A DNA stretch of 64,000 nt from Candidatus Omnitrophota bacterium (GTDB lineage Bacteria > Omnitrophota > Gorgyraeia > B26-G9), in the NCBI GenBank assembly GCA_043814605.1, contig JBDRJV010000028.1:92350-156349 (forward strand), read 5' to 3'. The notes under the pieces are model-generated. The model saw only the letters and a list, made by a program, of their open reading frames with translations. It did no database searches and was not told the origin of the DNA. The position numbers and the translations under genes were made by a program. Numbering within the stretch: the first letter of the stretch is position 1; every line of letters starts with the position of its first letter. Shown in pieces: positions 7,851 to 64,000 of the stretch.

Positions 7851-7925
7851 CAAGACATCCTATAATAGGAAAGTAGGAGGATGTCTTGATTATATAGATT
7901 AAAATTATTTTATAGAGAGATTACA
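7851..7925 (+). ncRNA. 5' half of the repeated leader element family A (hairpin aagacatcct..aggatgtctt plus the 'gagattacag' arm), here split by the GxxExxY gene
   Basis: Near-identical to 63069-63150. A promoter-like ttgaca (7787) with ggtataat (7810-7817) lies upstream. Confidence 0.5.
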
Positions 7926-8234
7926 GTGATTAAGGAGAGGGATCTGTTAACTGAGAAAATAATCGCTTGTGCTTATAATGTACATAGTAAACTTGGTCCT
8001 GGATTTAGCGAAAGTATATATCATAAGGCATTAAAAATAGTGTTAAAAGAACAGGGTTTAAAGTATCAAACTGAGAAAAGTTTTGATGTTTGTTTTCAAG
8101 GTAAAAACATTGGTAAATGTAGGCTCGATTTAGTCATCGCTGACAAGATTGTAATAGAACTGAAAGCTCTTAGCGGTAATATTCCTGCTGTATTTGAATC
8201 ACAGGTTTTATCTTATCTAAAAGTATCAGGATAA
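7926..8234 (+). CDS. GxxExxY family protein (PD-(D/E)XK-like), GTG start
   Basis: Motif GPGFSESIYHKAL (G-x-x-E-x-x-Y); 102 aa; sits exactly between the two halves of leader element A. The second copy of the element (63069-63252) lacks the gene. Confidence 0.7.
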   Translation: MIKERDLLTEKIIACAYNVHSKLGPGFSESIYHKALKIVLKEQGLKYQTEKSFDVCFQGKNIGKCRLDLVIADKIVIELKALSGNIPAVFESQVLSYLKVSG

Positions 8235-8282
8235 AAGAGCGGGTTTTTGATAAGCTTTGGCAATAAGAGTTATCAAGTTAGA

Positions 8283-8373
8283 AGATTAATGGTTTAATCT
8301 TCGTAATCTATTGTTAATCGTGGTAATCAGGGATAATCCAATCCAGGAGTGAGGATTATACCAGGAGGTATAA
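8283..8373 (+). ncRNA. 3' half of leader element A (cgtaatc arm plus hairpin gggataatcc..ggattatacc), immediately before the RBS of the 8374 gene
   Basis: Matches 63166-63252 almost base for base. Hairpin ends 12 nt before the ATG and is followed by aggagg. Confidence 0.5.
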
Positions 8374-16915: not shown

Positions 16916-17485
16916 AAAATAAAATCCCCTTTTCAGGGGTTTTTATTTCATAGAGGGAAACGAAGTTTTTACCTATGGGCGCTCGTTCCGCCGATGGCGG
17001 GAGCTCGCTGTCACTCCTTTCCATAATGTTGAATTCTTAGTCAAAAAAGATGGGGAGTATTATCCACTTTTTATTTAAAAATCTTTGCCCATCATAGTAA
17101 TTCCTTTAAAATCAATAAGTTAAGTTAAAACAGTTGACAAAGGAAGATTTAGAATGTATACTTAGTAATAGGATTTACAAAGTTTTTATTAACATTTGGA
17201 CAGTTAAATTGAAAGGTGCAAGATAAAGAGACAGGGAAAAAGAAAAAGGAAATTATATTATTTTTGATTACTGAAAAGTAATTATTAAAATTTGTTATTA
17301 GTAGCCCCTATCTCCCAATTGAATACCCTTCAATTATTAAATATCCGAAAAGGCAAACCCTAAGCAATTAGGGGACCCCGGCGATAATTATTCCGGGTCC
17401 CGCCAAAGGCGGGAGCAAAGCTACGGGTCTTTTATCCAAAGATTGCCGAGCATACCGATAACGCGCAGATTAAAAATTGGACAAG

Positions 17486-17541
17486 ACAGCCGAGCTGCCG
17501 AAGTATCTAGATGATGCTTTAGTAGTTCGGCTGTTTTTTTA
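17486..17541 (+). terminator. Hairpin + T7 (acagccga..tcggctgt-ttttttt), 75 nt upstream of the C25 peptidase start; terminator or attenuator of an upstream small transcript
   Basis: 8-bp stem plus T-run. Preceded by GC hairpins ggaccccgg..ccgggtcc and cccgcc-aaagg-cggg in the tRNA-peptidase spacer. Confidence 0.5.
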
Positions 17542-27456: not shown

Positions 27457-28509
27457 ATGCCGGAATTTTTAAATAATATATATTTAGGAAATAGCCTTTT
27501 AAAATATCTTATTAGCGCAGGGATTTTTTTAGGAGCAGTGATTATTTTACAAGTCATCCGCAAAATGGTTATTACCCGCTTGAAAAAATTTTCCAGTAAA
27601 ACACAAACAGCAATCGATGATTTTGTGGTGAAAATTTTTCAACGAAATATGATGCCGCTGCTTTATTTAGGGGCATTATATATATCATTACAGAATTTAG
27701 TTGTGCCGGAACAAATAACCAAAATAGTTAATCTTTCAAGTATAATTATTTTGACAGTAATGGCAATCCGGTTTAGTGTGTCTTTGAGTACTTATGTATT
27801 ATATGCTTTTTGGATTAAAGACGAGAAAAACGAAGCGCGGGAAAGGTCGCTTAAAGGGGTTTTAAGTGTAATTAAAGTTATTGTTTGGGGCGGCGGTATC
27901 GTTTTTTTGCTGGATAATTTAGGATTTAAAATTTCTGCGGTAATTGCCGGATTAGGTATTGGCGGGATTGCGGTTGCTTTAGGCGCTCAGGCAGTTTTAG
28001 GAGATCTGTTCAGTTTTTTCTCTATTTTATTTGACCGGCCTTTTGAAATCGGCGATTTTATCATTGTTGGAGATTATTTAGGATCAGTTGAATACATTGG
28101 GATTAAAACTACCCGTATCCGCAGTTTAGGCGGCGAACAGCTGATTTTTTCTAATACAGACTTAACAAATTCGCGGGTGCGCAATTATAAAAGAATGCAA
28201 GAACGCCGTGTCGTATTTAAATTAGGGGTTACTTATGATACAAATTATGAAAAGATAAAAGAAATTCCCCGGATTGTTAAAAGTATCATAGAAAAAGTCA
28301 AAGAAACCAGATTTGACCGGGCGCATTTTTCCGCATACGGAGATTTTAATTTAGTAATAGAAGTTGTATATTATGTTTTAAGCCCGGATTATAATAAGTA
28401 TATGGATATTCAGCAGGAAATTAATTTAGCCATAAAGAAAGAATTTGAAGCAAAACAAATTGAATTCGCATTTCCCACTCAGACGTTATATGTGAATAAA
28501 CAAACATAG
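27457..28509 (+). CDS. MscS-family mechanosensitive channel
   Basis: TM helices plus conserved MscS beta domain (GDFIIVGDYLGSVEYIGIKTTRIRSLGGEQLIFSNTDL). A ttgaca-N17-tatcat promoter lies ~27292-27320. Confidence 0.8.
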   Translation: MPEFLNNIYLGNSLLKYLISAGIFLGAVIILQVIRKMVITRLKKFSSKTQTAIDDFVVKIFQRNMMPLLYLGALYISLQNLVVPEQITKIVNLSSIIILTVMAIRFSVSLSTYVLYAFWIKDEKNEARERSLKGVLSVIKVIVWGGGIVFLLDNLGFKISAVIAGLGIGGIAVALGAQAVLGDLFSFFSILFDRPFEIGDFIIVGDYLGSVEYIGIKTTRIRSLGGEQLIFSNTDLTNSRVRNYKRMQERRVVFKLGVTYDTNYEKIKEIPRIVKSIIEKVKETRFDRAHFSAYGDFNLVIEVVYYVLSPDYNKYMDIQQEINLAIKKEFEAKQIEFAFPTQTLYVNKQT

Positions 28510-28565
28510 TACAGCGTCTAGCGTTTAGCGATTAGCGTTTAGAAAAAAGAAATTTCTCGTTATTT

Positions 28566-28636
28566 GCTACTCTCTACTCGTTGAGAACATTAATATTAAT
28601 TTTAGCGAAATTCCCGCAAGGGCGGGGCTACTTTAA
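28566..28636 (+). repeat. Repeat element D copy 1 (71 nt: gctactctctactcgttgagaacattaatattaattttagcgaaattcccgcaagggcggggctactttaaa), ends 10 nt before the 28647 start
   Basis: Second copy at 32243-32313 (2 differences). Contains hairpin cccgc-aagg-gcggg and the rc of the agtagagagtagc motif. Preceded by the 'tagcgtttagcgattagcgtttag' micro-repeat (28518-28541). Confidence 0.7.
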
Positions 28637-28646
28637 AAGGTAAAGC

Positions 28647-29018
28647 ATGGCGCGTGAATTAATTATCATCGGGGATCGGGTATTAATTAAACCGGACAAT
28701 CAAAAAGAAATGACGAATTCAGGGCTTTATTTGCCGCAAGGGGCCTATGAAAAAGAAAAAGTTCATAGCGGGAAAATAATAAAAGTTGGACCAGGAATCC
28801 CGGTTCCTGAACCGCAAAATTTTCAAGATGAGCTATGGAAGGAAACTCAGGATAAGTCAACACAATATTTCCCGCTGCAGGCAAAAGTAAATGACCGGGC
28901 TATTTTTTTGAGAAATTCTGCTGTGGAAATTGAATATGAAGATATAAAATATGTAATTGTTCCTCAGGCTGCGATTTTAGCTTTGATCCGGGATGATCTT
29001 TTAGACGATATGATTTAA
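28647..29018 (+). CDS. GroES/Cpn10-like protein (long, with insertion), no adjacent GroEL
   Basis: GDRVLIKP..SGLYLP..EKEKVHSGKIIKVGPG..AIFLRNSAVEIEYEDIKYVIV matches the Cpn10 pattern with a ~25-aa insert. Confidence 0.5.
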   Translation: MARELIIIGDRVLIKPDNQKEMTNSGLYLPQGAYEKEKVHSGKIIKVGPGIPVPEPQNFQDELWKETQDKSTQYFPLQAKVNDRAIFLRNSAVEIEYEDIKYVIVPQAAILALIRDDLLDDMI

Positions 29019-31875: not shown

Positions 31876-32242
31876 ACGATAACCGATCTTTGGGAATCAA
31901 ATAAAAACACATCCTATGAAATAATGTTTATTTTCTGGCAATTTATGCCCGAAGACTATGCCGCCAAAAAACCATCCTTGGTTTATGGCGTTTCGACATC
32001 CTGCCAGCCTCGCCGTTACAGTGAGGTTGGCATGAAGATGGCTAGGCGGGTCTTCATCTTCGTACATAAATTAAAGAAAATCACACATAATTTCATTATG
32101 GCTGCTTTTTTTATTTAATTTTCAAATAAGTAATTAAATCAAAAATTGTTCGCAAACTGTAGTAATATTATAAATAGGGTAAAGGGAATCAAGATAAGGA
32201 GAAAGTGAAAAAATCTCGCTACTTGCTTGTGCCCGTAAGGGT

Positions 32243-32313
32243 GCTACTCTCTACTCGTTGAGAACATTAATATTAATTTTAGCGAAATCCCGCAAGGGCG
32301 GGGCTACTTTAAA
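32243..32313 (+). repeat. Repeat element D copy 2, ends 10 nt before the GTG start at 32324
   Basis: See 28566-28636. Confidence 0.7.
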
Positions 32314-32323
32314 GAGGAATAAA

Positions 32324-33268
32324 GTGCGTACCGGAGTTTCATATTTATCTTCACACAACCCAAAGCATATCAGAGCAGACCTGGAAGAAATTAAAAGCCT
32401 GGGATGTGATGATATATTGCTGGCAGCCCAGGAAAATGATTTTTTGTATTTCCCAGGTAAATTAAAGTTTTTACCGGAAATTGCCAAAGAATACGGGATC
32501 CGGCCGATTGCTGTTTTCTGGGGCGCAATAAATTATTTTGGCGGCGGCAGGTCCAGCCAATTTTTACTTTACAATCCACAAACGCACCAAGTTAATAAAG
32601 ACGGTTCGTATAATCCCGCAGGTTGTTATAATAATCCGCAAGCAGTAGGTTTTATCAAAAAACTGATTGATGAAATTGCCGAATATGGTTTTTGCGGTTA
32701 TTTTATTGATGAGCCTTCATTGCTTGATTGTTATTGTCCGTCTTGTTGTGAGCTTTTTGAGAAAATGTTTTCGGCAAAGCTTCAAGATGCAAATTATACA
32801 GCCTATAATCAATTTCGTAAAAAATGCGCGATTAATTATGTAGAGGATATTTCGGATTATATAAAAACCAAATTCCCCAAAATAGAAACAATGTGCTGTG
32901 TTATGCCGCAAGATCAAGTGCTTTGGCCGCAAATTGCCAAAATCCAGAGTTTAGATAATTTAGGCACAGATATTTACTGGGTTAATAATGATCAGGATGC
33001 TGAACTTACCCGTCCTTTGATCAGGGAAATTGCTGGTTATTGCCAGACTAATCAAAAAAAACACCATCAATGGCTCCAAGCATGGGGAGTTGAAAAAGGC
33101 CGGGAAGCGAAAATTAAAGCGCAAGCTGAAATTATTATTAATGAGAATCCGGATAGTTTATATGTCTGGGCGTATAATGGACAACTCGGTACATCTGAAA
33201 CCTGCGAAGACCCAGGCCTTTCTTGGCAAACAGCGTGTGAAATATTAAAAAGCGTTAAACATCTATAA
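32324..33268 (+). CDS. TIM-barrel glycoside-hydrolase-like hypothetical protein (GTG start after RBS aaagagga)
   Basis: Pattern ..GIRPIAVFWGAINYFGGG..CGYFIDEP resembles glycosyl-hydrolase-like TIM barrels; weak. Confidence 0.35.
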   Translation: MRTGVSYLSSHNPKHIRADLEEIKSLGCDDILLAAQENDFLYFPGKLKFLPEIAKEYGIRPIAVFWGAINYFGGGRSSQFLLYNPQTHQVNKDGSYNPAGCYNNPQAVGFIKKLIDEIAEYGFCGYFIDEPSLLDCYCPSCCELFEKMFSAKLQDANYTAYNQFRKKCAINYVEDISDYIKTKFPKIETMCCVMPQDQVLWPQIAKIQSLDNLGTDIYWVNNDQDAELTRPLIREIAGYCQTNQKKHHQWLQAWGVEKGREAKIKAQAEIIINENPDSLYVWAYNGQLGTSETCEDPGLSWQTACEILKSVKHL

Positions 33269-33341
33269 TGATGCTAGATCCTTGATGCAAGATACTCGTT
33301 TGTTTTTTTAGTGTTTAGAATCCAGGATCCAGAAGCCAGGA

Positions 33342-36826: not shown

Positions 36827-37040
36827 GCTAATATAATAACATAGAACAAGTGATAAAGAGGGATAATAAATAATCCTGTAGGGACAGCCCCGACGAAGGA
36901 GGGGTGCGAAGCAGGCACTGCCCTGTCCTTCAACAATAGTACAAAAATAATAATATAGACCAGAGGCATTGCTTGTCTGCTAACAAATAAAAACACATCC
37001 AGTGAAATTATGTTTATTTTCTAATAATTTATCCGGTCGT

Positions 37041-37247
37041 GTCTTGTGTTTATTCACACCAGACCACTCGTTGGTCCCCAGCGAGGCCCAACTTCGTTCG
37101 GCGATCCGTGTTCGCGCTTGAGGCTTTAATAATTTTTTAGCCTCAAACCATGCCTGCTCACACTTCTCAACGTCCGGCTTAGAATAAACACATAACACAT
37201 AACAGCTATGAGCTATCAGCCATAAGCTAGTTACTGGCAACCTTTTT
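37041..37247 (+). ncRNA. Structured RNA element B copy 1 (~200 nt, hairpin-rich, ends in a T-run), candidate sRNA
   Basis: Paralog at 40964-41168 (~85% identity). Compensatory changes preserve the stems (gttgg..ccaac vs gttagg..cctaac; gtgtttattc..gaataaacac vs gtatttattc..gaataaatac); loop-only changes in the gaggc-loop-gcctc hairpin. Confidence 0.55.
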
Positions 37248-40864: not shown

Positions 40865-40963
40865 ACTCTAAAATCTTCTTCCTAAACCTTAAGTAAAAGT
40901 TATTTTATCTTACAGTAGCTGATATTTTTTTCGTTCAATTTAAATTTATTTTTCACAAACACT

Positions 40964-41168
40964 GTCTCGTATTTATTCACACCGGAACACTTGTTAGGCC
41001 CCGGCGAGGCCTAACTTCGTTCGGCGATTTGTGTTCGCTCTTGAGGCTTTATTTATCTTTTAGCCTCAACCCATGCCCGCTCACACTGCTCAACGTCCGG
41101 CTTTGAATAAATACTCGCCAGTAGTATCAACTTTAAAGAATAAAGCTTGTAACTGTCAGCTTTTTTTA
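40964..41168 (+). ncRNA. Structured RNA element B copy 2, ending in a clear intrinsic terminator (aaagct-tgtaactgtc-agcttt + T7 at 41141-41168)
   Basis: See copy 1. Lies 100 nt after the thyX stop. Followed by the micro-repeat gctaatcgctaaacg (41199-41213, rc of the 28518 motif). Confidence 0.55.
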
Positions 41169-41225
41169 AGGATGATGTATTTTCTCTATTCGCTGACCGC
41201 TAATCGCTAAACGTTATTTTATTAA

Positions 41226-41253
41226 TTGACAAACCAAGAGCAGTTGATATAAT
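41226..41253 (+). promoter_or_regulatory. Promoter of the cobalamin-riboswitch operon (TTGACA-N16-TATAAT)
   Basis: ttgaca 41226-31, tataat 41248-53. Confidence 0.6.
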
Positions 41254-41257
41254 ACAA

Positions 41258-41500
41258 AACAAATACAGGTGCTCTTAGGAAGAGCTTAAAAAGGGAAGTA
41301 TGGTTTAAAGCCATCACGGTCCCGCCGCTGTAACTGAGGACGAAACTTATAAAGCCACTTTCTTAGCATTTAAGATGGGAAGGTATAGGGAGTAGGATGA
41401 TTCAGAAGTCAGAAGACCTGCCTGTTATTAATAAGTGTATAGCAGAAATGGATTTTCGCTATCCTCGCGGAAGGATGAATTAAAATCAGGGTGCAATCCT
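41258..41500 (+). promoter_or_regulatory. Cobalamin (AdoCbl) riboswitch
   Basis: aaaaAGGGAAgtatGGTttaaagCCatCACGGTCCCGCCgCTGTaa core (B12-box-like), plus downstream aaGCCACTTtcttagcatttaagatGGGAAGGTa and aGTCAGAAGACCTGCC segments matching the Rfam cobalamin consensus. Confidence 0.8.
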
Positions 41501-46373: not shown

Positions 46374-46425
46374 AAAAATATTAGCTACAGGTGTTAGGTT
46401 ACAAGTTTCAGGCCAAAACATTTTT

Positions 46426-46530
46426 ATACATCTGCGGCCTAAAACCGCGCCCATTTATGGCGCGGATAAAAGGAAGCTGCTTGAATATTCCACCCCAGGA
46501 ACCACGGGCTTTAGCTTGTGGGGGTTCCAT
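46426..46530 (+). ncRNA. Structured RNA element C copy 1 (~105 nt)
   Basis: ~92% identical to 49503-49607. Stem acggg/cccgt in copy 2 becomes acggg/cttgt in copy 1, so the transitions convert G-C to G·U pairs on the + strand only; conserved hairpin ccgcgcc-atttat-ggcgcgg. Confidence 0.55.
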
Positions 46531-46746
46531 TTATGACTTGCAGCTTGATTCCGGATACTTGTAACTTGAAAGGTGGTGATCAAAGATTAGAAAATGTGAT
46601 TTTTTGCTAGGGGTTTTTATTCAATAAGTGAAAAAACAACGTTAAGAGAGAAGGAAATAACCAGATAAACAAAGGAACTCCCGTAACCTAATTGTATATA
46701 AAACTACAATTAAGAATTCGGGGACTGCCCCGCAACGGTAATATTT

Positions 46747-46810
46747 GGAAGTAGCAAGTAGAGAGTAGCAAGTAGAGAGAATCCAAAAAAATCTCGCTAC
46801 TCGGATCTCG
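46747..46810 (+). repeat. Heptamer-based repeat element F (agtagcaagtagagagtagcaagtagagag ... tctcgctactcgg ... cttgctact), imperfect palindrome upstream of the TonB-dependent receptor gene
   Basis: Shares the agtagagagtagc and aaaaaatctcgctact motifs with 32215-32260, with element D (as reverse complement) and with 63716-63750 (agagtagagag x4). Confidence 0.6.
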
Positions 46811-46885
46811 TTGCTTGCTACTTTTAAAAAAGTCCGGTCGATTGATTATCTGGTAAAAACTCTCGCGGGAGGAGATAGAAAGAGT

Positions 46886-49428: not shown

Positions 49429-49502
49429 CCATCCATGCATCTACGAGGTGGAAATATGGTTGGATTTGACAAAAATTGACTAAAAAGAGTACAATGAATT
49501 TA

Positions 49503-49607
49503 TACATCCGCGGCCTAAAACCGCGCCCCTTTATGGCGCGGATAAAAGGATGCCGCTTGAGTATTCCACCCCAGGAACCACGGGCTTTAGCCCGTAGGGG
49601 TTCCATT
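49503..49607 (+). ncRNA. Structured RNA element C copy 2, 24 nt upstream of the DJ-1/PfpI gene
   Basis: See 46426-46530. Confidence 0.55.
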
Positions 49608-49630
49608 AATTTATAAAGAAACGGAAAAGA

Positions 49631-58844: not shown

Positions 58845-59324
58845 GTGAAAATGATTGTAAAAAATAATATGCAGACACAAATTTTATCTGTGAAACGCGG
58901 GACAACTCTAACCCAATTATTAGGGTTATTTAAAGATTTCCACAGTTTTCCAGTGGTTCCGGTTGTAGATAATGATAATGTATTAATCGGCATTGTGCAT
59001 ATTAAAAGTTTTTTTGAAATTTTTCAACCTACGTATCAAGATATTTTAATGCGTAATCCGCTTTCGATGATCAGCCGGGCGCCGGCTAATATTTTTGATA
59101 TTGATATTGACGAAGGTTTGGGATTTTTGGTATTAGTTGCGGATATTATGGATAAAAATATTGTAAAAATTAAAGAAAACCAGGAAATCAGAGCAGCTTA
59201 TGATTTAATGCATTTACATGGCTGGGATGCGATTCCTGTGGTTGATGACCAAAATAAGTTAATGGGGATTATTAGTACCTTCGATATTATGATAAAAATT
59301 TTTCAAGAAAAAGGATTAATATAA
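58845..59324 (+). CDS. CBS-pair regulatory protein (unit 1 of tandem duplication)
   Basis: Two CBS motifs; ~80% aa identity to 60591-61064. Confidence 0.7.
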   Translation: MKMIVKNNMQTQILSVKRGTTLTQLLGLFKDFHSFPVVPVVDNDNVLIGIVHIKSFFEIFQPTYQDILMRNPLSMISRAPANIFDIDIDEGLGFLVLVADIMDKNIVKIKENQEIRAAYDLMHLHGWDAIPVVDDQNKLMGIISTFDIMIKIFQEKGLI

Positions 59325-59360
59325 AAACATGAAAAAATATAAGAATTTGAAAGCACGATA

Positions 59361-60536
59361 ATGAATATAATTTTAGGTGTGGGTATTATTTTAATCTTTG
59401 GCCTTTTTTCCGGGAAAATTGCGGAAAAAGTTAAAACCCCGGCGATTACTGCCTATCTTATTTTAGGAATATTAATCGGTCCTTATGCTTGTAATCTTAT
59501 TTCCGGGAATGTAATCAAAATTTCCGGGATTATTTCTAATATTGCTTTAAGTTTTATTGCGTTTAGCATTGGGCAGAATTTTTCTGTGCAGACTTTCCGG
59601 GAAGTTGGTAAGCAAGTATTATGGATTTCAATACTGGAAGCCTTGGGAGCCTGGATAGTAACAGTTGTGGCTTTGGTTTTTTATAAAGTTCCTTTGTATT
59701 TAGCGCTTATTTTTGGGGCAATTGCTGCGGCAAGTGCTCCGGCAGCAATAATTATGGTTGTGCGTGAATATAAAGCACGGGGAAAATTTGTGGATGTTTT
59801 AATGGGTGTGGTTGCGTTGGATGATGCCTGGGGATTGATAATTTTCTCTATTTCCATGGCTTTATCAAAGGCAATGTATGCACATCTTTCCACGAGCGTA
59901 GGGAATGTTTTAGGTAAGGCATTTTTTGAAATTGGCGGTTCTTTTCTGCTGGGAGGAGTTTTGGGAGTTGCCTTAAGCCGGATGGGAAGGTTTTTAAAAA
60001 ATCAAACAGAACTTTTAATTTATACAGTAGGCATAATTTTTATCGCAACTGGATTAGCGCTGTATTTTCATGTCTCTGTTTTGCTCACCACCATGTTTTT
60101 AGCGGCTGTAGTTGTAAATTTAAATAGTGAAAGTTTTAAATTTTTCGATGTTTTAAGCCATATTGACTGGCCGATATATCTTATATTTTTTGTTTTAGCC
60201 GGGGCCAGTTTAGAAATTGATTTATTGATGAAAATCGGTATAATAGGTATTGTATACATAATTTTTCGCGTTGTGGGAAAAATTATCGGTACTTATTTAG
60301 GGGCAAAAATTTCTGGAGCAAGCTCTGATATTCAGAAATATTTAAGCTTAGGCTTATTGCCGCAAGCCGGAGTTGCTTTAGGAATGGCTTTAATTGCCCG
60401 GGATCAGTTTCCTGAATTTGGCGGTATTATTTTTACAACGGTTGCAGCGACAACAGTGATCTATGAAATAATTGGTCCTTTTTTTGTTAAGATGGCCCTA
60501 ATTAAGACAAATCAGATTCAAACACTTTCACATTGA
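59361..60536 (+). CDS. Cation:proton antiporter (unit 1)
   Basis: Polytopic; N-terminus AITAYLILGILIGPY; paralog of 61067-62275. Confidence 0.75.
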   Translation: MNIILGVGIILIFGLFSGKIAEKVKTPAITAYLILGILIGPYACNLISGNVIKISGIISNIALSFIAFSIGQNFSVQTFREVGKQVLWISILEALGAWIVTVVALVFYKVPLYLALIFGAIAAASAPAAIIMVVREYKARGKFVDVLMGVVALDDAWGLIIFSISMALSKAMYAHLSTSVGNVLGKAFFEIGGSFLLGGVLGVALSRMGRFLKNQTELLIYTVGIIFIATGLALYFHVSVLLTTMFLAAVVVNLNSESFKFFDVLSHIDWPIYLIFFVLAGASLEIDLLMKIGIIGIVYIIFRVVGKIIGTYLGAKISGASSDIQKYLSLGLLPQAGVALGMALIARDQFPEFGGIIFTTVAATTVIYEIIGPFFVKMALIKTNQIQTLSH

Positions 60537-60590
60537 TAATGTTATTAAATTTTTTTTCTCTAATTTACTAAAATTTACTAAGGGTAAATT

Positions 60591-61064
60591 ATGCAAGTAA
60601 AAGAAATAATGCAGACACCTGTTTTAAGTGTAAAACGCGGGACAACGCTTTCCCAGTTGTTAGAATTATTCAAAGACTTCCATAGCTTTCCAGTGGTTCC
60701 AGTTGTAGATAATGATAATATATTAATTGGCATTGTACATATTAAAAGTTTTTTTGAAATTTTCCAGCCGCATCATCAAGATATTTTAATGCGTAATCCG
60801 CTTTCAATGATCAGCCGGGAGCCGACTAATATTTTTGATATTGATATTGAAGAAGGCATGGGATTTTTAGTATTAGTTGCGGATATCATGGATAAAAAAA
60901 TTGTGAAAATCAAAGAAACTCAAGATTTAAAAGAAGCGTATAATTTAATGCAATTACATGGACGGAATATGGTCCCGGTTGTGGATGATCAGAAAAAACT
61001 GGTAGGGATTATCAGTGTTTTTGATATTGTTATGAGATTGTTTAAAGAAAAGGGACTTTTGTAG
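60591..61064 (+). CDS. CBS-pair regulatory protein (unit 2)
   Basis: Paralog of 58845-59324. Confidence 0.7.
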   Translation: MQVKEIMQTPVLSVKRGTTLSQLLELFKDFHSFPVVPVVDNDNILIGIVHIKSFFEIFQPHHQDILMRNPLSMISREPTNIFDIDIEEGMGFLVLVADIMDKKIVKIKETQDLKEAYNLMQLHGRNMVPVVDDQKKLVGIISVFDIVMRLFKEKGLL

Positions 61065-61066
61065 CA

Positions 61067-62275
61067 ATGAATGCTCTCCTTGGCATAAGCATAATTCTTT
61101 TGTTTGGCCTTTTATCCGGAAGAGTTGCGGAAAAAGTGAAAACTCCGGCAATTACTGCCTATCTTGTATTAGGAATTCTTCTTGGGCCTTATATGTTTAG
61201 TTTTGTGCCCAAGAGTATCCTCAATTCTTCAGGATTAATTTCTAATTTTGCGTTAAGTCTAATTGCTTTTAATATTGGGCAGAATTTTTCTAAAAATATT
61301 TTTCAGCAAGTTGGCAATCAGGTATTATGGATTTCTGTATTAGCAGCTTTTTCTGCCGGAGCCTTTGTTGTCTGCGGATTATTTTTGTTAGGACTGCCTT
61401 TATATATTGCTTTAATTTTTGGCGCAATTGCTACCGCGACTGCACCGGCAGCGTTGATTATGGTAATCCGGCAGTATAAAGCAAAGGGGAGATTTACAGA
61501 AATCTTAATGGGGGTTGTGGCCATTGATGATGCTTGGGGCTTGATTGCTTTTTCGGTTTGCTTGGCTTTTGCCCGTAAAATTCATTTTAATCATACTTCT
61601 AGTTTTTTTCAAGTAGTGTTAAAATCTACAGCTGAAATTGCCGGGTCTCTTTTTTTGGGAGCGGTTATTGGTTTTATTTTTGTAAAATTTTCTAAATATA
61701 TTTATAGCCAAATAGATTTATTAATCTATACTGTCGGAACTATTTTTTTTACTGCAGGACTGGCAATACATTTTCATTGGTCAGTACTTTTAGCGTGTAT
61801 GATGCTTGCAGCAGTGATTGTTAATTTTGACCGCGAAAATTTTCGATTCTTTGATATTTTACAAACTATTGACTGGCCGATATATCTACTATTTTTTGTT
61901 TTAGCCGGAGCTAATTTAGAAATTGAACTTTTAACTAAAGTTGGCTTAATTGGTACGGTATACATTGTGATGAGAATTGTCGGAAAATGCGTGGGCACAT
62001 ATTTAGGGGCAATTGCCTCAGGGGCCGGATCCGACATCAGAAATTATATGGGAATAGCCCAAATGCCTCAAGCGGGCGTGGCTTTAGGCATGGCGTTAGT
62101 TGCTAAGGATAGTTTTTCTGAGCTGGGCGGCATGATTTTTACCACCATTGCAGCGACAACAATTATTTATGAAATAATCGGCCCTTTTTTTGTTAAATTC
62201 GCCCTACAAAAAACTAACCAAATACCTCAGGCAAAACCGACAAAATTAGAAGTCCCGGTGGAAACTTCTTCATAA
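61067..62275 (+). CDS. Cation:proton antiporter (unit 2)
   Basis: Paralog of 59361-60536. Confidence 0.75.
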   Translation: MNALLGISIILLFGLLSGRVAEKVKTPAITAYLVLGILLGPYMFSFVPKSILNSSGLISNFALSLIAFNIGQNFSKNIFQQVGNQVLWISVLAAFSAGAFVVCGLFLLGLPLYIALIFGAIATATAPAALIMVIRQYKAKGRFTEILMGVVAIDDAWGLIAFSVCLAFARKIHFNHTSSFFQVVLKSTAEIAGSLFLGAVIGFIFVKFSKYIYSQIDLLIYTVGTIFFTAGLAIHFHWSVLLACMMLAAVIVNFDRENFRFFDILQTIDWPIYLLFFVLAGANLEIELLTKVGLIGTVYIVMRIVGKCVGTYLGAIASGAGSDIRNYMGIAQMPQAGVALGMALVAKDSFSELGGMIFTTIAATTIIYEIIGPFFVKFALQKTNQIPQAKPTKLEVPVETSS

Positions 62276-63068: not shown

Positions 63069-63252
63069 AAGACATCCTATAATGGGAAAGAAGGATGATG
63101 TCTTGATTATATAGATTAAAGTTATTTTATAGGGAGATTACAGTAATTAAGCAGAAGGATCCATTAGATGGTTTAATTTTCGTAATCTATTGTTAATCGT
63201 TGTAATCAGGTATAATCCAATCCAGGAGTGAGGATTATACCAGGAGATTCTT
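63069..63252 (+). ncRNA. Leader element A, intact uninterrupted copy (~185 nt) in the 5' UTR of a CBS-domain gene
   Basis: Hairpin aagacatcct..ggatgatgtctt (63069-63105); long-range arms gagattaca/cgtaatct; hairpin ggtataatcc-aatccaggagtga-ggattatacc (63209-63241); then caggag RBS and ATG at 63253. Colinear with 7851-7925 plus 8283-8373. Confidence 0.55.
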
Positions 63253-63708
63253 ATGATCGCTGGCGATATTATGACGAGAGAAGTTAAAACTGTCAATCCG
63301 CAAATGCAAATAAGGGAATTAGCGGCTTTTTTTGTGGAGGAGAATATTAGCGGTGCTCCGGTTATTAATGCCTCAGGAAGATTTTTAGGGATAGTTACGG
63401 AAGAAGACCTGATTTATCAGGATAAGAAGGTTCATTTACCAACTTTCTTAAATTTATTCTCAAGTATTTTTGCTATCGGCTTGGATCAAATGGAGGAAGA
63501 ATTTAAAAAAATTGCCGCCACCAATGTTGAACAAATAATGCAAACCAATTCGAAAATAATAACAAAAGAAACAACCATTGAAGAAATTGCTACGATTATG
63601 AGTGAAGATAAAGCCTATTATCTTGTGGTTATGGAACAGGGCAAGATTGAAGGAATTATTACAAAAAGAGATTTAATTAAAGCGGTAGCGAAAGGAAAAA
63701 TCTGGTAA
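63253..63708 (+). CDS. CBS-pair domain protein
   Basis: Two CBS motifs (GAPVINASGRFLGIVTEEDLI, GIITKRDLI). Confidence 0.7.
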   Translation: MIAGDIMTREVKTVNPQMQIRELAAFFVEENISGAPVINASGRFLGIVTEEDLIYQDKKVHLPTFLNLFSSIFAIGLDQMEEEFKKIAATNVEQIMQTNSKIITKETTIEEIATIMSEDKAYYLVVMEQGKIEGIITKRDLIKAVAKGKIW

Positions 63709-63767
63709 TTTATGGAGTAAAGAGTAGAGAGTAGAGAGTAGAGAGTAGAGAGAAAGGGGTGTAAGGC

Positions 63768-64000
63768 ATGAATGAAAAAGATGAATTTTTGAAAATGATG
63801 CAGAAAATGAATGTTAATAAATTGGCAGCAATAGTTTACGGGTTTTTACGGGTTTTCAGCATTTTTTTAGTGTTTTTAATATTTTTTGGAAACTGTATAT
63901 TTTATGTTGGTCCGGATGAATTTGCGATTAAACAGGTTAATATTGGCTTGAATCCGGGGATAAGAGAAAAAGTTTATAATACCGGACTGCATTTAATTGC
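63768..64000 (+). CDS. SPFH/band-7 (HflK/C-like) membrane protein, 5' partial in window
   Basis: TM helix then VGPDEFAIKQVNIG..G..VYNTGLH typical start of the SPFH domain; runs off the window end. Confidence 0.5.
   Translation, partial: MNEKDEFLKMMQKMNVNKLAAIVYGFLRVFSIFLVFLIFFGNCIFYVGPDEFAIKQVNIGLNPGIREKVYNTGLHLI

Follow-up and report, generated by a model that had tools for sequence, protein, structure and literature searches.

The window analysed here, a 64-kb stretch of a Candidatus Omnitrophota metagenome-assembled genome (MAG), has a GC content of ~35%, a positive GC skew and nearly all of its genes on the plus strand, and it divides into 56.6 kb of coding and 7.4 kb of intergenic DNA. 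Its spacers contain small repeats built on heptanucleotides, chief among them element D, which is present twice, and elements E and F; an earlier sequence-only reading had drawn attention to them as modular repeats placed immediately 5′ of start codons. The first copy of D (locus 1) lies between an MscS gene and a gene for a Cpn10-like protein (Pfam PF00166; 100% identical to an Omnitrophota protein at NCBI, encoded on a 162-kb contig), the second (locus 2) lies upstream of a gene for a 314-aa protein that has no Pfam match, E lies upstream of a gene for a TonB-dependent receptor, and F follows a gene for a CBS-domain protein. The features are as follows, where R1 is a covariance model described below and TRF is Tandem Repeats Finder:

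28512–28543, plus strand: 5′ arm of the locus-1 hairpin, degenerate heptamers cagcgtc tagcgtt tagcgat tagcgtt tag (TRF, AGCGTTT × 4.3; period-7 scan; R1 alignment)
28544–28554, plus strand: A-rich loop of the locus-1 hairpin (minimum free energy fold; R1 alignment)
28555–28580, plus strand: 3′ arm of the locus-1 hairpin, TCTCGTTATTTGCTACTCTCTACTCG (R1 match; alignment with locus 2)
28565–28637, plus strand: element D, copy 1, in which the last part of a heptamer arm is followed by 32 nt of unique sequence, a GC hairpin and GCTACTTTAAA; identical in contig L001
28613–28626, plus strand: the GC hairpin CCCGC-AAGG-GCGGG, then GCTAC, within D copy 1
32172–32313, plus strand: locus-2 composite repeat, made up of a decayed purine-rich 5′ arm, a junction, an interrupted 3′ arm and D copy 2 (R1, 9.6 bits only)
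41185–41216, minus strand: inverted TAGCG-type heptamer array between the terminator-like hairpin of the ThyX operon and the promoter of a cobalamin riboswitch
46749–46825, plus strand: element E, the best-preserved member of the family in the window (fold −56 kcal/mol, z = −4.3; R1, 84 bits; homologues L105 and L128–L133)
63715–63752, plus strand: element F, a lone 5′-type array, GAGTAGA × 5.4, which fills the spacer from the stop codon of the CBS-domain protein (63706–63708) to the ATG at 63768

Element D was first described as 71 nt long, at 28566–28636 and 32243–32313; the repeat is real, but it measures 73 nt and occupies 28565–28637 and 32242–32313, and its two copies are 98.6% identical with one 1-nt indel. 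It carries the CCCGC-AAGG-GCGGG hairpin that had been reported in it (32289–32302 in copy 2) and, on its minus strand, the word AGTAGAGAGTAGC in both copies, and the palindrome ATTAATATTAAT (28589–28600) lies inside its unique 32-nt segment. Read on the minus strand the hairpin is GTAG-C-CCCGC-CCTT-GCGGG, with a 5-bp stem, and its sequence CCCGCAAGGGCGGG has two exact occurrences in the 64 kb, both within D. The two copies had been said to end exactly 10 nt before a start codon, which is correct for the GTG at 32324 (the orthologous start, because the proteins of relatives begin with MRT at the same place), but the distance to the ATG of the Cpn10-like gene at 28647 is 9 nt. The two genes downstream are unrelated, as the earlier reading supposed.

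D had been taken for a self-contained element, and this part of the description has to be replaced, since D is the best-preserved, right-hand part of two larger composite repeats, ~126 nt (28512–28637) and 142 nt (32172–32313) long. Left of D the two loci remain homologous, at ~59% identity, across both loop and 5′ arm, with an 18-nt indel that is the locus-2 hairpin GTGCCC-GTAA-GGGTGC with TGCT on both flanks. At locus 1 the 5′ arm begins 3 nt past the MscS stop codon, and the 3′ arm is a diverged copy of the family arm TCTCGCTACT...CTCTACTCG whose last 16 nt are the start of D. Model R1, which was built from a six-member alignment of related hairpins (below), finds 28506–28596 with 23.6 bits (E = 1.6e-4 in a 5.5-kb search); because this match takes in the TAGCG array, the A-rich loop and TCTCGTTATTTGCTACTCTCTACTCG, a diverged member of the family has its 5′ arm in the “micro-repeat” reported at 28518, and its 3′ arm ends with the first 16 nt of D. 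At locus 2 the loop/arm junction AAAAAATCTCGCTACT lies at 32208–32223, and the 3′ arm is broken by the small hairpin just mentioned, GTGCCCGTAAGGGTGC at 32229–32244. The right part of the composite (the 32-nt segment, the GC hairpin and GCTACTTTAAA) looks like cargo placed into a heptamer run.

Element E displays the complete architecture. The tandem heptamers reported at 46747–46810 are present, as the 5′ arm, (AGTAGCA AGTAGAG) × 2 at 46749–46781, of a hairpin that extends to 46825 through a loop (46782–46791) and the 3′ arm TCTCGCTACTCGGATCTCGTTGCTTGCTACTTTT (46792–46825; TCTCGCTACTC...GCTTGCTACTT); a separate GC hairpin, GGGGACTGCCCC, lies directly upstream at 46720–46731. The 16-mer AAAAAATCTCGCTACT, which had been placed at 32222 and 46784, is found exactly at 32208 and 46786 (the former positions were off by 2–14 nt), and it is the loop/3′-arm junction that is conserved in every member. 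The scan for (AGTAGAG) × 3 described below led to another Omnitrophota genome (L105) with the same architecture and near-identical arms, AGTAGCGAGTAGCA(AGTAGAG)4 AGAATactattttTCTCGCTACTTGCTACTCTCTACTCGCTACT, and a search of the Joint Genome Institute (JGI) metagenomes with a gapped pattern across the loop, AGTAGAGAGAAT N5–15 TCTCGCTACT, gave six contigs (L128–L133), five of them distinct (L130 = L132), in which the similarity extended along the arms and the loops were unrelated. One of these, L131, belongs to Omnitrophota, because of the homologues of its ribosome recycling factor. Across the family the 5′ arm consists of degenerate heptamers with a TAG core (AGTAGAG, AGTAGCA, AGTAGCG, TAGCGNN), the loop is short and A/T-rich with AGAAT at its start and TCTC at its end, and the 3′ arm is the complementary run (NNCTACT: GCTACTC, TCTACTC, GCTACTT). 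The six-member alignment gives a consensus hairpin of 21 pairs in which the arm sequence is conserved and a single pair covaries. GC hairpins or unique segments can be nested in loops and arms alike, hence the mosaic look of the family; for example, a CGAG-flanked GC hairpin, CCCCGAAC...GTTCGGGG, splits the 5′ arm in L128.

One locus shows how such elements come and go. Between frr (the ribosome recycling factor gene, RRF), a tRNA gene and a PTS-IIA gene, the element adjoins the PTS-IIA ribosome-binding site on its upstream side in L131, it is present with ~165 nt of cargo in its loop in L274 (RRF 80% identical), and it is missing from L276 (RRF 73% identical); some copies therefore outlast speciation and others are recent, as in REP and MITE families (below). 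In the two Omnitrophota relatives L274 (3062–4100) and L275 (3062–3355) the tRNA gene after frr, read by eye as tRNA-Lys with anticodon UUU, is interrupted past ...GGTAGAGCA by an insert that in L274 encodes a LAGLIDADG_3 protein; the tRNA gene is uninterrupted in L131 and L276, and the insert may be an intron or a homing-endonuclease insertion.

Heptamers are not confined to these elements. A scan for short-period self-similarity counted 10 period-7 arrays in the 7.4 kb of intergenic DNA and 2 in the 56.6 kb of coding DNA, against 0.5 in shuffled intergenic sequence, and among periods 4 to 15 only 7 and 14 were enriched. The units combine 2–3 variable bases with a 4–5-nt core (e.g., gtcTAGC gttTAGC gatTAGC, or ggAAGTA gcAAGTA gaGAGTA). 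TRF arrays start at 28513, 46749 and 63715, with further ones at 33320, 37187, 37204 and 37268; they include a 14-mer × 2.1 at 46750–46779 and GAGTAGA × 5.4 at 63715–63752, the latter bearing out the (agagtag) × 4 reported at 63716–63750. Allowing up to two mismatches, AGTAGAGAGTAGC has 8 matches against 0.5 expected from shuffled controls, located twice in D (minus), at 46757 and 46771 (plus) and at 63716–63749 (plus). The word TAGCGTTTAGCGATTAGCG has 4 matches against 0.03 expected; its two reported occurrences are both present, at 28519 (plus) rather than 28518, and inverted at 41198–41216 (minus), there with one mismatch. By contrast, the recurrence of the hairpin claimed at 17402 is found only when three mismatches are allowed, where 4 matches stand against 1.4 expected; we place it outside the family because this is chance level and because it lies inside a c-di-GMP-I riboswitch (17342–17502, 38 bits; upstream of a gene for a 1443-aa protein with peptidase C25 and dockerin domains).

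Could these matches simply be coincidence in AT-rich DNA, or products of assembly? The source is a MAG of low GC content (~35%), and the comparison with a second assembly covers D copy 1 only. However, the counts of 4–8 observed matches against 0.03–0.5 expected do not fit chance, the independent European Nucleotide Archive (ENA) contig L001 is identical to the window across 28480–28660 (the whole spacer at 28.5 kb), and homologous elements are present in other genomes and metagenomes. BLAST with the middle segment of D against L001–L133 matched L001 alone, the second assembly of the same site. We regard coincidence and assembly artefact as effectively refuted.

Heptameric intergenic repeats are known in bacteria (PMC4679880, PMC4692102), for example the cyanobacterial short tandemly repeated repetitive (STRR) sequences and “long simple sequence repeats” (LSSR; Mrazek 2007 as summarised in PMC4679880) and the GGGAATC and GGGGAYT arrays of Xanthomonas and Nostoc (PMC4692102). 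The window arrays share with these the tandem 7-nt units, often degenerate at 2–3 positions and in intergenic positions only, the many dispersed arrays of 2–6 units, some inverted arrays able to form stem-loops, and perhaps a length and sequence that differ between close relatives. The units are head-to-tail, and the intergenic enrichment is specific to period 7; intergenic, degenerate period-7 units are likewise what marks the heptanucleotide repeats of cyanobacteria (STRR), Xanthomonas, Nostoc and Beggiatoaceae. Orthologous spacers in the relatives carry other heptamer words and lengths, a comparison made between species only. The differences are that the window units are AGTAGNN and TAGCGNN, and that the Omnitrophota family conserves across species a whole hairpin (arms and loop ends) and not the repeated unit alone. 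Very small dispersed repeats, hairpin-like units of ~14–30 nt nested in Nostoc heptamer arrays and in miniature inverted-repeat transposable elements (MITEs), are said to have been described by Elhai et al. in 2008; small hairpin-like units also lie within tandem heptamer runs here (at 32229–32244 and in L128), but they have no sequence similarity to those of Nostoc and are known from their sequence alone. We know of no earlier description of STRR-type heptanucleotide repeats in Omnitrophota.

Comparison with relatives bears directly on the position of the repeats next to start codons. The gene order MscS, Cpn10-like, MBL, (thioredoxin), IMPase, 314-aa protein, radical SAM is kept in four relatives (L002, L003, L004 and L006), and BLAST of D, E and F against these syntenic sequences found none of them. 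The MscS–Cpn10-like spacer is 137 nt long in the window and 11, 25, 57 and 78 nt in the relatives, and the IMPase–314-aa spacer is 448 nt long compared with 25–398 nt; D is absent from the orthologous spacers and is therefore a lineage-specific insertion into spacers inside operons. The elements of other genomes fill their spacers just as tightly: that of L105 lies 15 nt past a stop codon and 13 nt before a start codon, and that of L130, between two hydrogenase/NuoEF-like genes, 3 nt past a stop codon and 11 nt before a start codon. F, in forward orientation, ends 15 nt before its ATG and E lies ~60 nt upstream of a start codon, with a separate Shine-Dalgarno sequence in every case. The adjacency to start codons noted in the sequence-only reading is thus real, but no regulatory reading is needed to account for it, as the relatives make do with spacers as short as 11 and 25 nt: in tight operons an insertion survives only in the gap that separates a stop codon from the Shine-Dalgarno sequence of the next gene, and this is what brings the elements close to start codons.

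It is nevertheless conceivable that D and E are dedicated cis-regulatory RNA leaders of the downstream genes (riboswitch expression platforms, attenuators or small RNA genes). The D1, D2 and E regions fold with energies below those of shuffled controls (z = −2.3, −1.6 and −4.3, respectively), UUUU directly follows E, the 3′ tail of the family consensus is U-rich, and the small hairpin 5′ of the 314-aa gene is kept in L002, as GTGCCC-TAGA-GGGTAT, with changes (G-C to G-U, U-G to U-A) that preserve pairing in the sense strand only. In the L002 leader that hairpin is followed directly by TACTTTT TACTTTA and then the Shine-Dalgarno sequence, and a segment of ~51 nt, TTGAGAAC...CGGGG, is missing. 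There is also a weak match to a cobalamin riboswitch at 46675–46776 (16 bits, where the gathering score is 31.5), just upstream of E and of the TonB-dependent receptor gene, which ends a B12 transport and salvage operon with a clear cobalamin riboswitch at its head (41250–41439); the weak match may be a degenerate second riboswitch or chance. Against such leaders stand the absence of D from the orthologous leaders of relatives, the placement of the same element before unrelated genes and also in antisense, and the one covarying pair among 21. Rfam 15 scans at the gathering threshold, over the window and 18 related loci, matched the repeats to no family, and when the D1, D2 and E regions were scanned by E-value no score came near a gathering threshold. 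Promoter and terminator scans found no promoter-like or terminator-like site in D and nothing relevant, with no terminator consensus, in E. We judge dedicated leaders to be very improbable, and these results settle that what precedes the Cpn10-like and 314-aa genes is DNA of a repeat family and not a set of promoters, riboswitches or operator arrays.

The heptamers might instead be the sites of one sequence-specific RNA- or DNA-binding protein and mark a transcriptional or post-transcriptional regulon, as has been proposed for the TAACTGA direct repeats of marine Beggiatoaceae, cyanobacteria and Bacteroidetes (MacGregor 2015, PMC4679880). The likeness to that system lies in heptamer arrays a few nt upstream of the start codons of unrelated genes, also inside operons; in addition, the arm sequences are conserved across Omnitrophota species while the loops differ and covariation is almost nil, and several copies abut the Shine-Dalgarno region. 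However, most TAACTGA arrays of the Beggiatoaceae BOGUAY genome are forward direct repeats over the ribosome-binding site, with one inverted set reported (PMC4679880), while the Omnitrophota elements occur in both orientations, have heterogeneous units and are typically inverted hairpin pairs. Of the window elements none is a forward repeat that overlaps a ribosome-binding site (D is reversed, E lies ~60 nt upstream and F 15 nt). The elements occur in both orientations relative to the flanking genes (4 sense, 3 antisense), and in the window E and F carry AGTAGAG on the plus strand, D on the minus strand. The downstream genes (Cpn10-like, 314-aa protein, TonB-dependent receptor and others) are unrelated, the elements are missing from orthologous spacers of relatives at 81–87% protein identity, and the units are degenerate and fall into several word families. 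A single binding protein thus seems unlikely to explain the repeats. A Chi-like or uptake-sequence-like oriented signal was also considered and rejected, as the words occur on both strands of a window whose gene direction is uniformly plus and whose GC skew is positive.

The earlier suggestion of REP/BIME-like elements (repetitive extragenic palindromic sequences and bacterial interspersed mosaic elements) separates into a part that fits and a part that does not. In behaviour the fit is fair: like REPs, BIMEs and REPINs (PMC3733652, PMC3116915), the window repeats are short, non-coding, hairpin-forming and dispersed between co-directional genes in mosaic clusters, lie inside operons and are absent in sister lineages, contain a GTAG motif, and are likely to be transcribed with side effects on the mRNA. 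True GTAG-tagged REPs or REPINs would go further, as they would owe their mobility to a REP-associated tyrosine transposase (RAYT) whose gene lies elsewhere in the genome. A REP is a GTAG-tagged palindrome of 20–40 bp with a stem of usually 6–13 and rarely 5 bp and an unpaired GTAG at one end (PMC3733652); the minus-strand reading of the D hairpin, with its 5-bp stem, matches this definition of a GTAG tail plus palindrome, GTAG is present in every 5′-arm unit, and the inverted hairpin-forming doublets resemble REPINs (PMC3116915), in that E, L105 and L128–L133 each consist of inverted units with a short spacer that form one hairpin. In contrast, the stems of the family consist of tandem AT-rich heptamers in which GTAG is itself base-paired, where a REP would have a 20–40-bp GC palindrome and an unpaired tail, arrays of TAGCG and AACTTG type have no GTAG, and density is low, the GC hairpin occurring only twice in the window and both times in D, where REPs are defined by high copy number. 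No transposase and no RAYT (Y1 transposase) was found among the ~50 window proteins scanned with Pfam. Although the arms could serve as terminal inverted repeats, as in a MITE, the flanks of seven members have no direct duplication. Membership in the RAYT-mobilised REPs is for these reasons improbable.

How widespread the heptamers are, and how they are oriented, was examined beyond the window. Scanning Genome Taxonomy Database (GTDB) genomes for (AGTAGAG) × 3 gave more than 120 stretches in many phyla. This does not make AGTAGAG a special, phylum-spanning word, an idea we rejected because two permuted heptamers of the same composition are equally frequent in IMG/VR viral contigs (10 and 14, against 9 for (AGTAGAG) × 3; TAACTGA gave 107); the wide distribution thus reflects the general abundance of heptamer microsatellites, and the composite hairpin is the Omnitrophota-specific part. 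Reverse-complement arrays lie within 200 nt of 28 of 132 AGTAGAG arrays and always downstream (28:0, in at least 15 genomes), so that the form is 5′-(AGTAGAG)n-loop-(CTCTACT)n-3′ throughout a survey of 120 loci in at least 8 phyla. TAACTGA arrays have their partner upstream without exception (7:0), which is the same rule when written 5′-(AGTTATC)n...(GATAACT)n-3′; the counts for the two families come from L008–L127 and L167–L246. The inverted arrays of the window (E, and 46385–46420 with 46537–46575) likewise have their AGT arm 5′. A three-frame stop function was considered as the cause and rejected, since the AGTAGAG 5′ arm contains TAG and the AGTTATC 5′ arm contains no stop. The polarity fits elements with defined ends, or recognition of a GTAG that precedes a stem, as it does in REPs (PMC3733652), and such strand-specific recognition is a further point for the RAYT-mobilised explanation above. 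It also allows a more general, if doubtful, possibility, namely that heptamer hairpins are a distinct, actively maintained class of elements with defined ends and not passive microsatellites; if this were true, the polarity and the cross-species conservation of the arm sequence in Omnitrophota would imply that a strand-specific enzyme or binding protein, RAYT-like or new, recognises AGT-phased heptamer stems and generates or spreads them.

The explanation that we favour, and hold to be reasonably probable, is that D, E, F and the fragments are one family of non-coding, hairpin-forming intergenic repeats that behave like selfish DNA, having spread to and survived in spacers. Heptamer runs would arise and change by slipped-strand mispairing, 7 nt being the favoured unit in bacteria; slippage of the polymerase is the cause to which Mrazek et al. 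2007 attributed heptanucleotide repeats (as summarised in PMC4679880 and PMC4692102). Whole elements, or pieces such as the 73-nt D, would be copied between spacers by a sequence-dependent mechanism of REP, REPIN or MITE type, or alternatively by gene conversion between heptamer runs. They would survive only where harmless, the heptamers being excluded from coding sequence and finding room only between stop codon and Shine-Dalgarno sequence. Co-transcribed in operon mRNAs, they would fold into long hairpins and, as for REPs and BIMEs, could as a by-product influence mRNA stability, processing or partial termination, and translational coupling; by this analogy they probably act as mRNA hairpins by side effect only and not as a dedicated regulon signal. 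Several observations weigh against selfish repeats of this kind. No mobilising enzyme is among the window proteins and no target-site duplications are evident around the members; the arm sequence is conserved across species of 39–49% GC without covariation, which could equally mean protein binding; simple slippage does not predict that the arms should have so strict a polarity (28:0); exact scans with the D 23-mer GCTACTCTCTACTCGTTGAGAAC found no match in genome and metagenome collections, which do not include the source species; and the suggested effects on mRNA lean on analogy.

Other repeats share the spacers of the window. A 112-nt GC-rich structured repeat without an Rfam match (46423–46534 and 49499–49610, 92% identical) has in one hairpin GCTTGT or GCCCGT opposite ACGGGC (G-U to G-C); its first copy is bracketed by inverted AGTTNCA and ACTTGNA heptamer runs, and its second follows a TTGACA-17-TACAAT promoter upstream of a DJ-1/PfpI-like gene. 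A 152-nt repeat (37040–37191 and 40963–41114, 87% identical) with inverted ends, gtgtttattc ... gaataaacac, looks MITE-like and is overlapped by a spurious minus-strand open reading frame (ORF; 36980–37240), and a 49-nt repeat (31898–31946 and 36984–37032, 88% identical) opens two long spacers. A 177-nt leader with a hairpin and TAATC words ~10–11 nt apart is repeated at 7852–8367 and 63069–63246, upstream of a 122-aa ORF (8374) and a CBS-domain gene (63253); the 8-kb copy is split by a ~340-nt insert with a PD-(D/E)XK_3 (GxxExxY-type) ORF (7926–8234), a relative lies upstream of a thioredoxin-like gene in L004 (10403–10503), and it may be a cis-regulatory leader with an acquired mobile insertion. 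Before this CBS-domain gene, 58845–62275 holds a tandem duplication of a CBS-domain and Na+/H+ exchanger gene pair (58845–60536 and 60591–62275; 70–87% DNA identity).

The D/E family is real but of an ordinary kind, an Omnitrophota addition to two known classes, the heptamer repeats and the REP-like hairpins, and with it the Omnitrophota join the few lineages in which heptanucleotide intergenic repeats are known. The sequences 5′ of the Cpn10-like and 314-aa genes should not be annotated as regulatory. A covariance model and eight members are now available for a hairpin family that is conserved across species of an uncultivated phylum, and the AGT-arm-5′ rule, if true genome-wide, points to a mechanism behind bacterial heptamer repeats.

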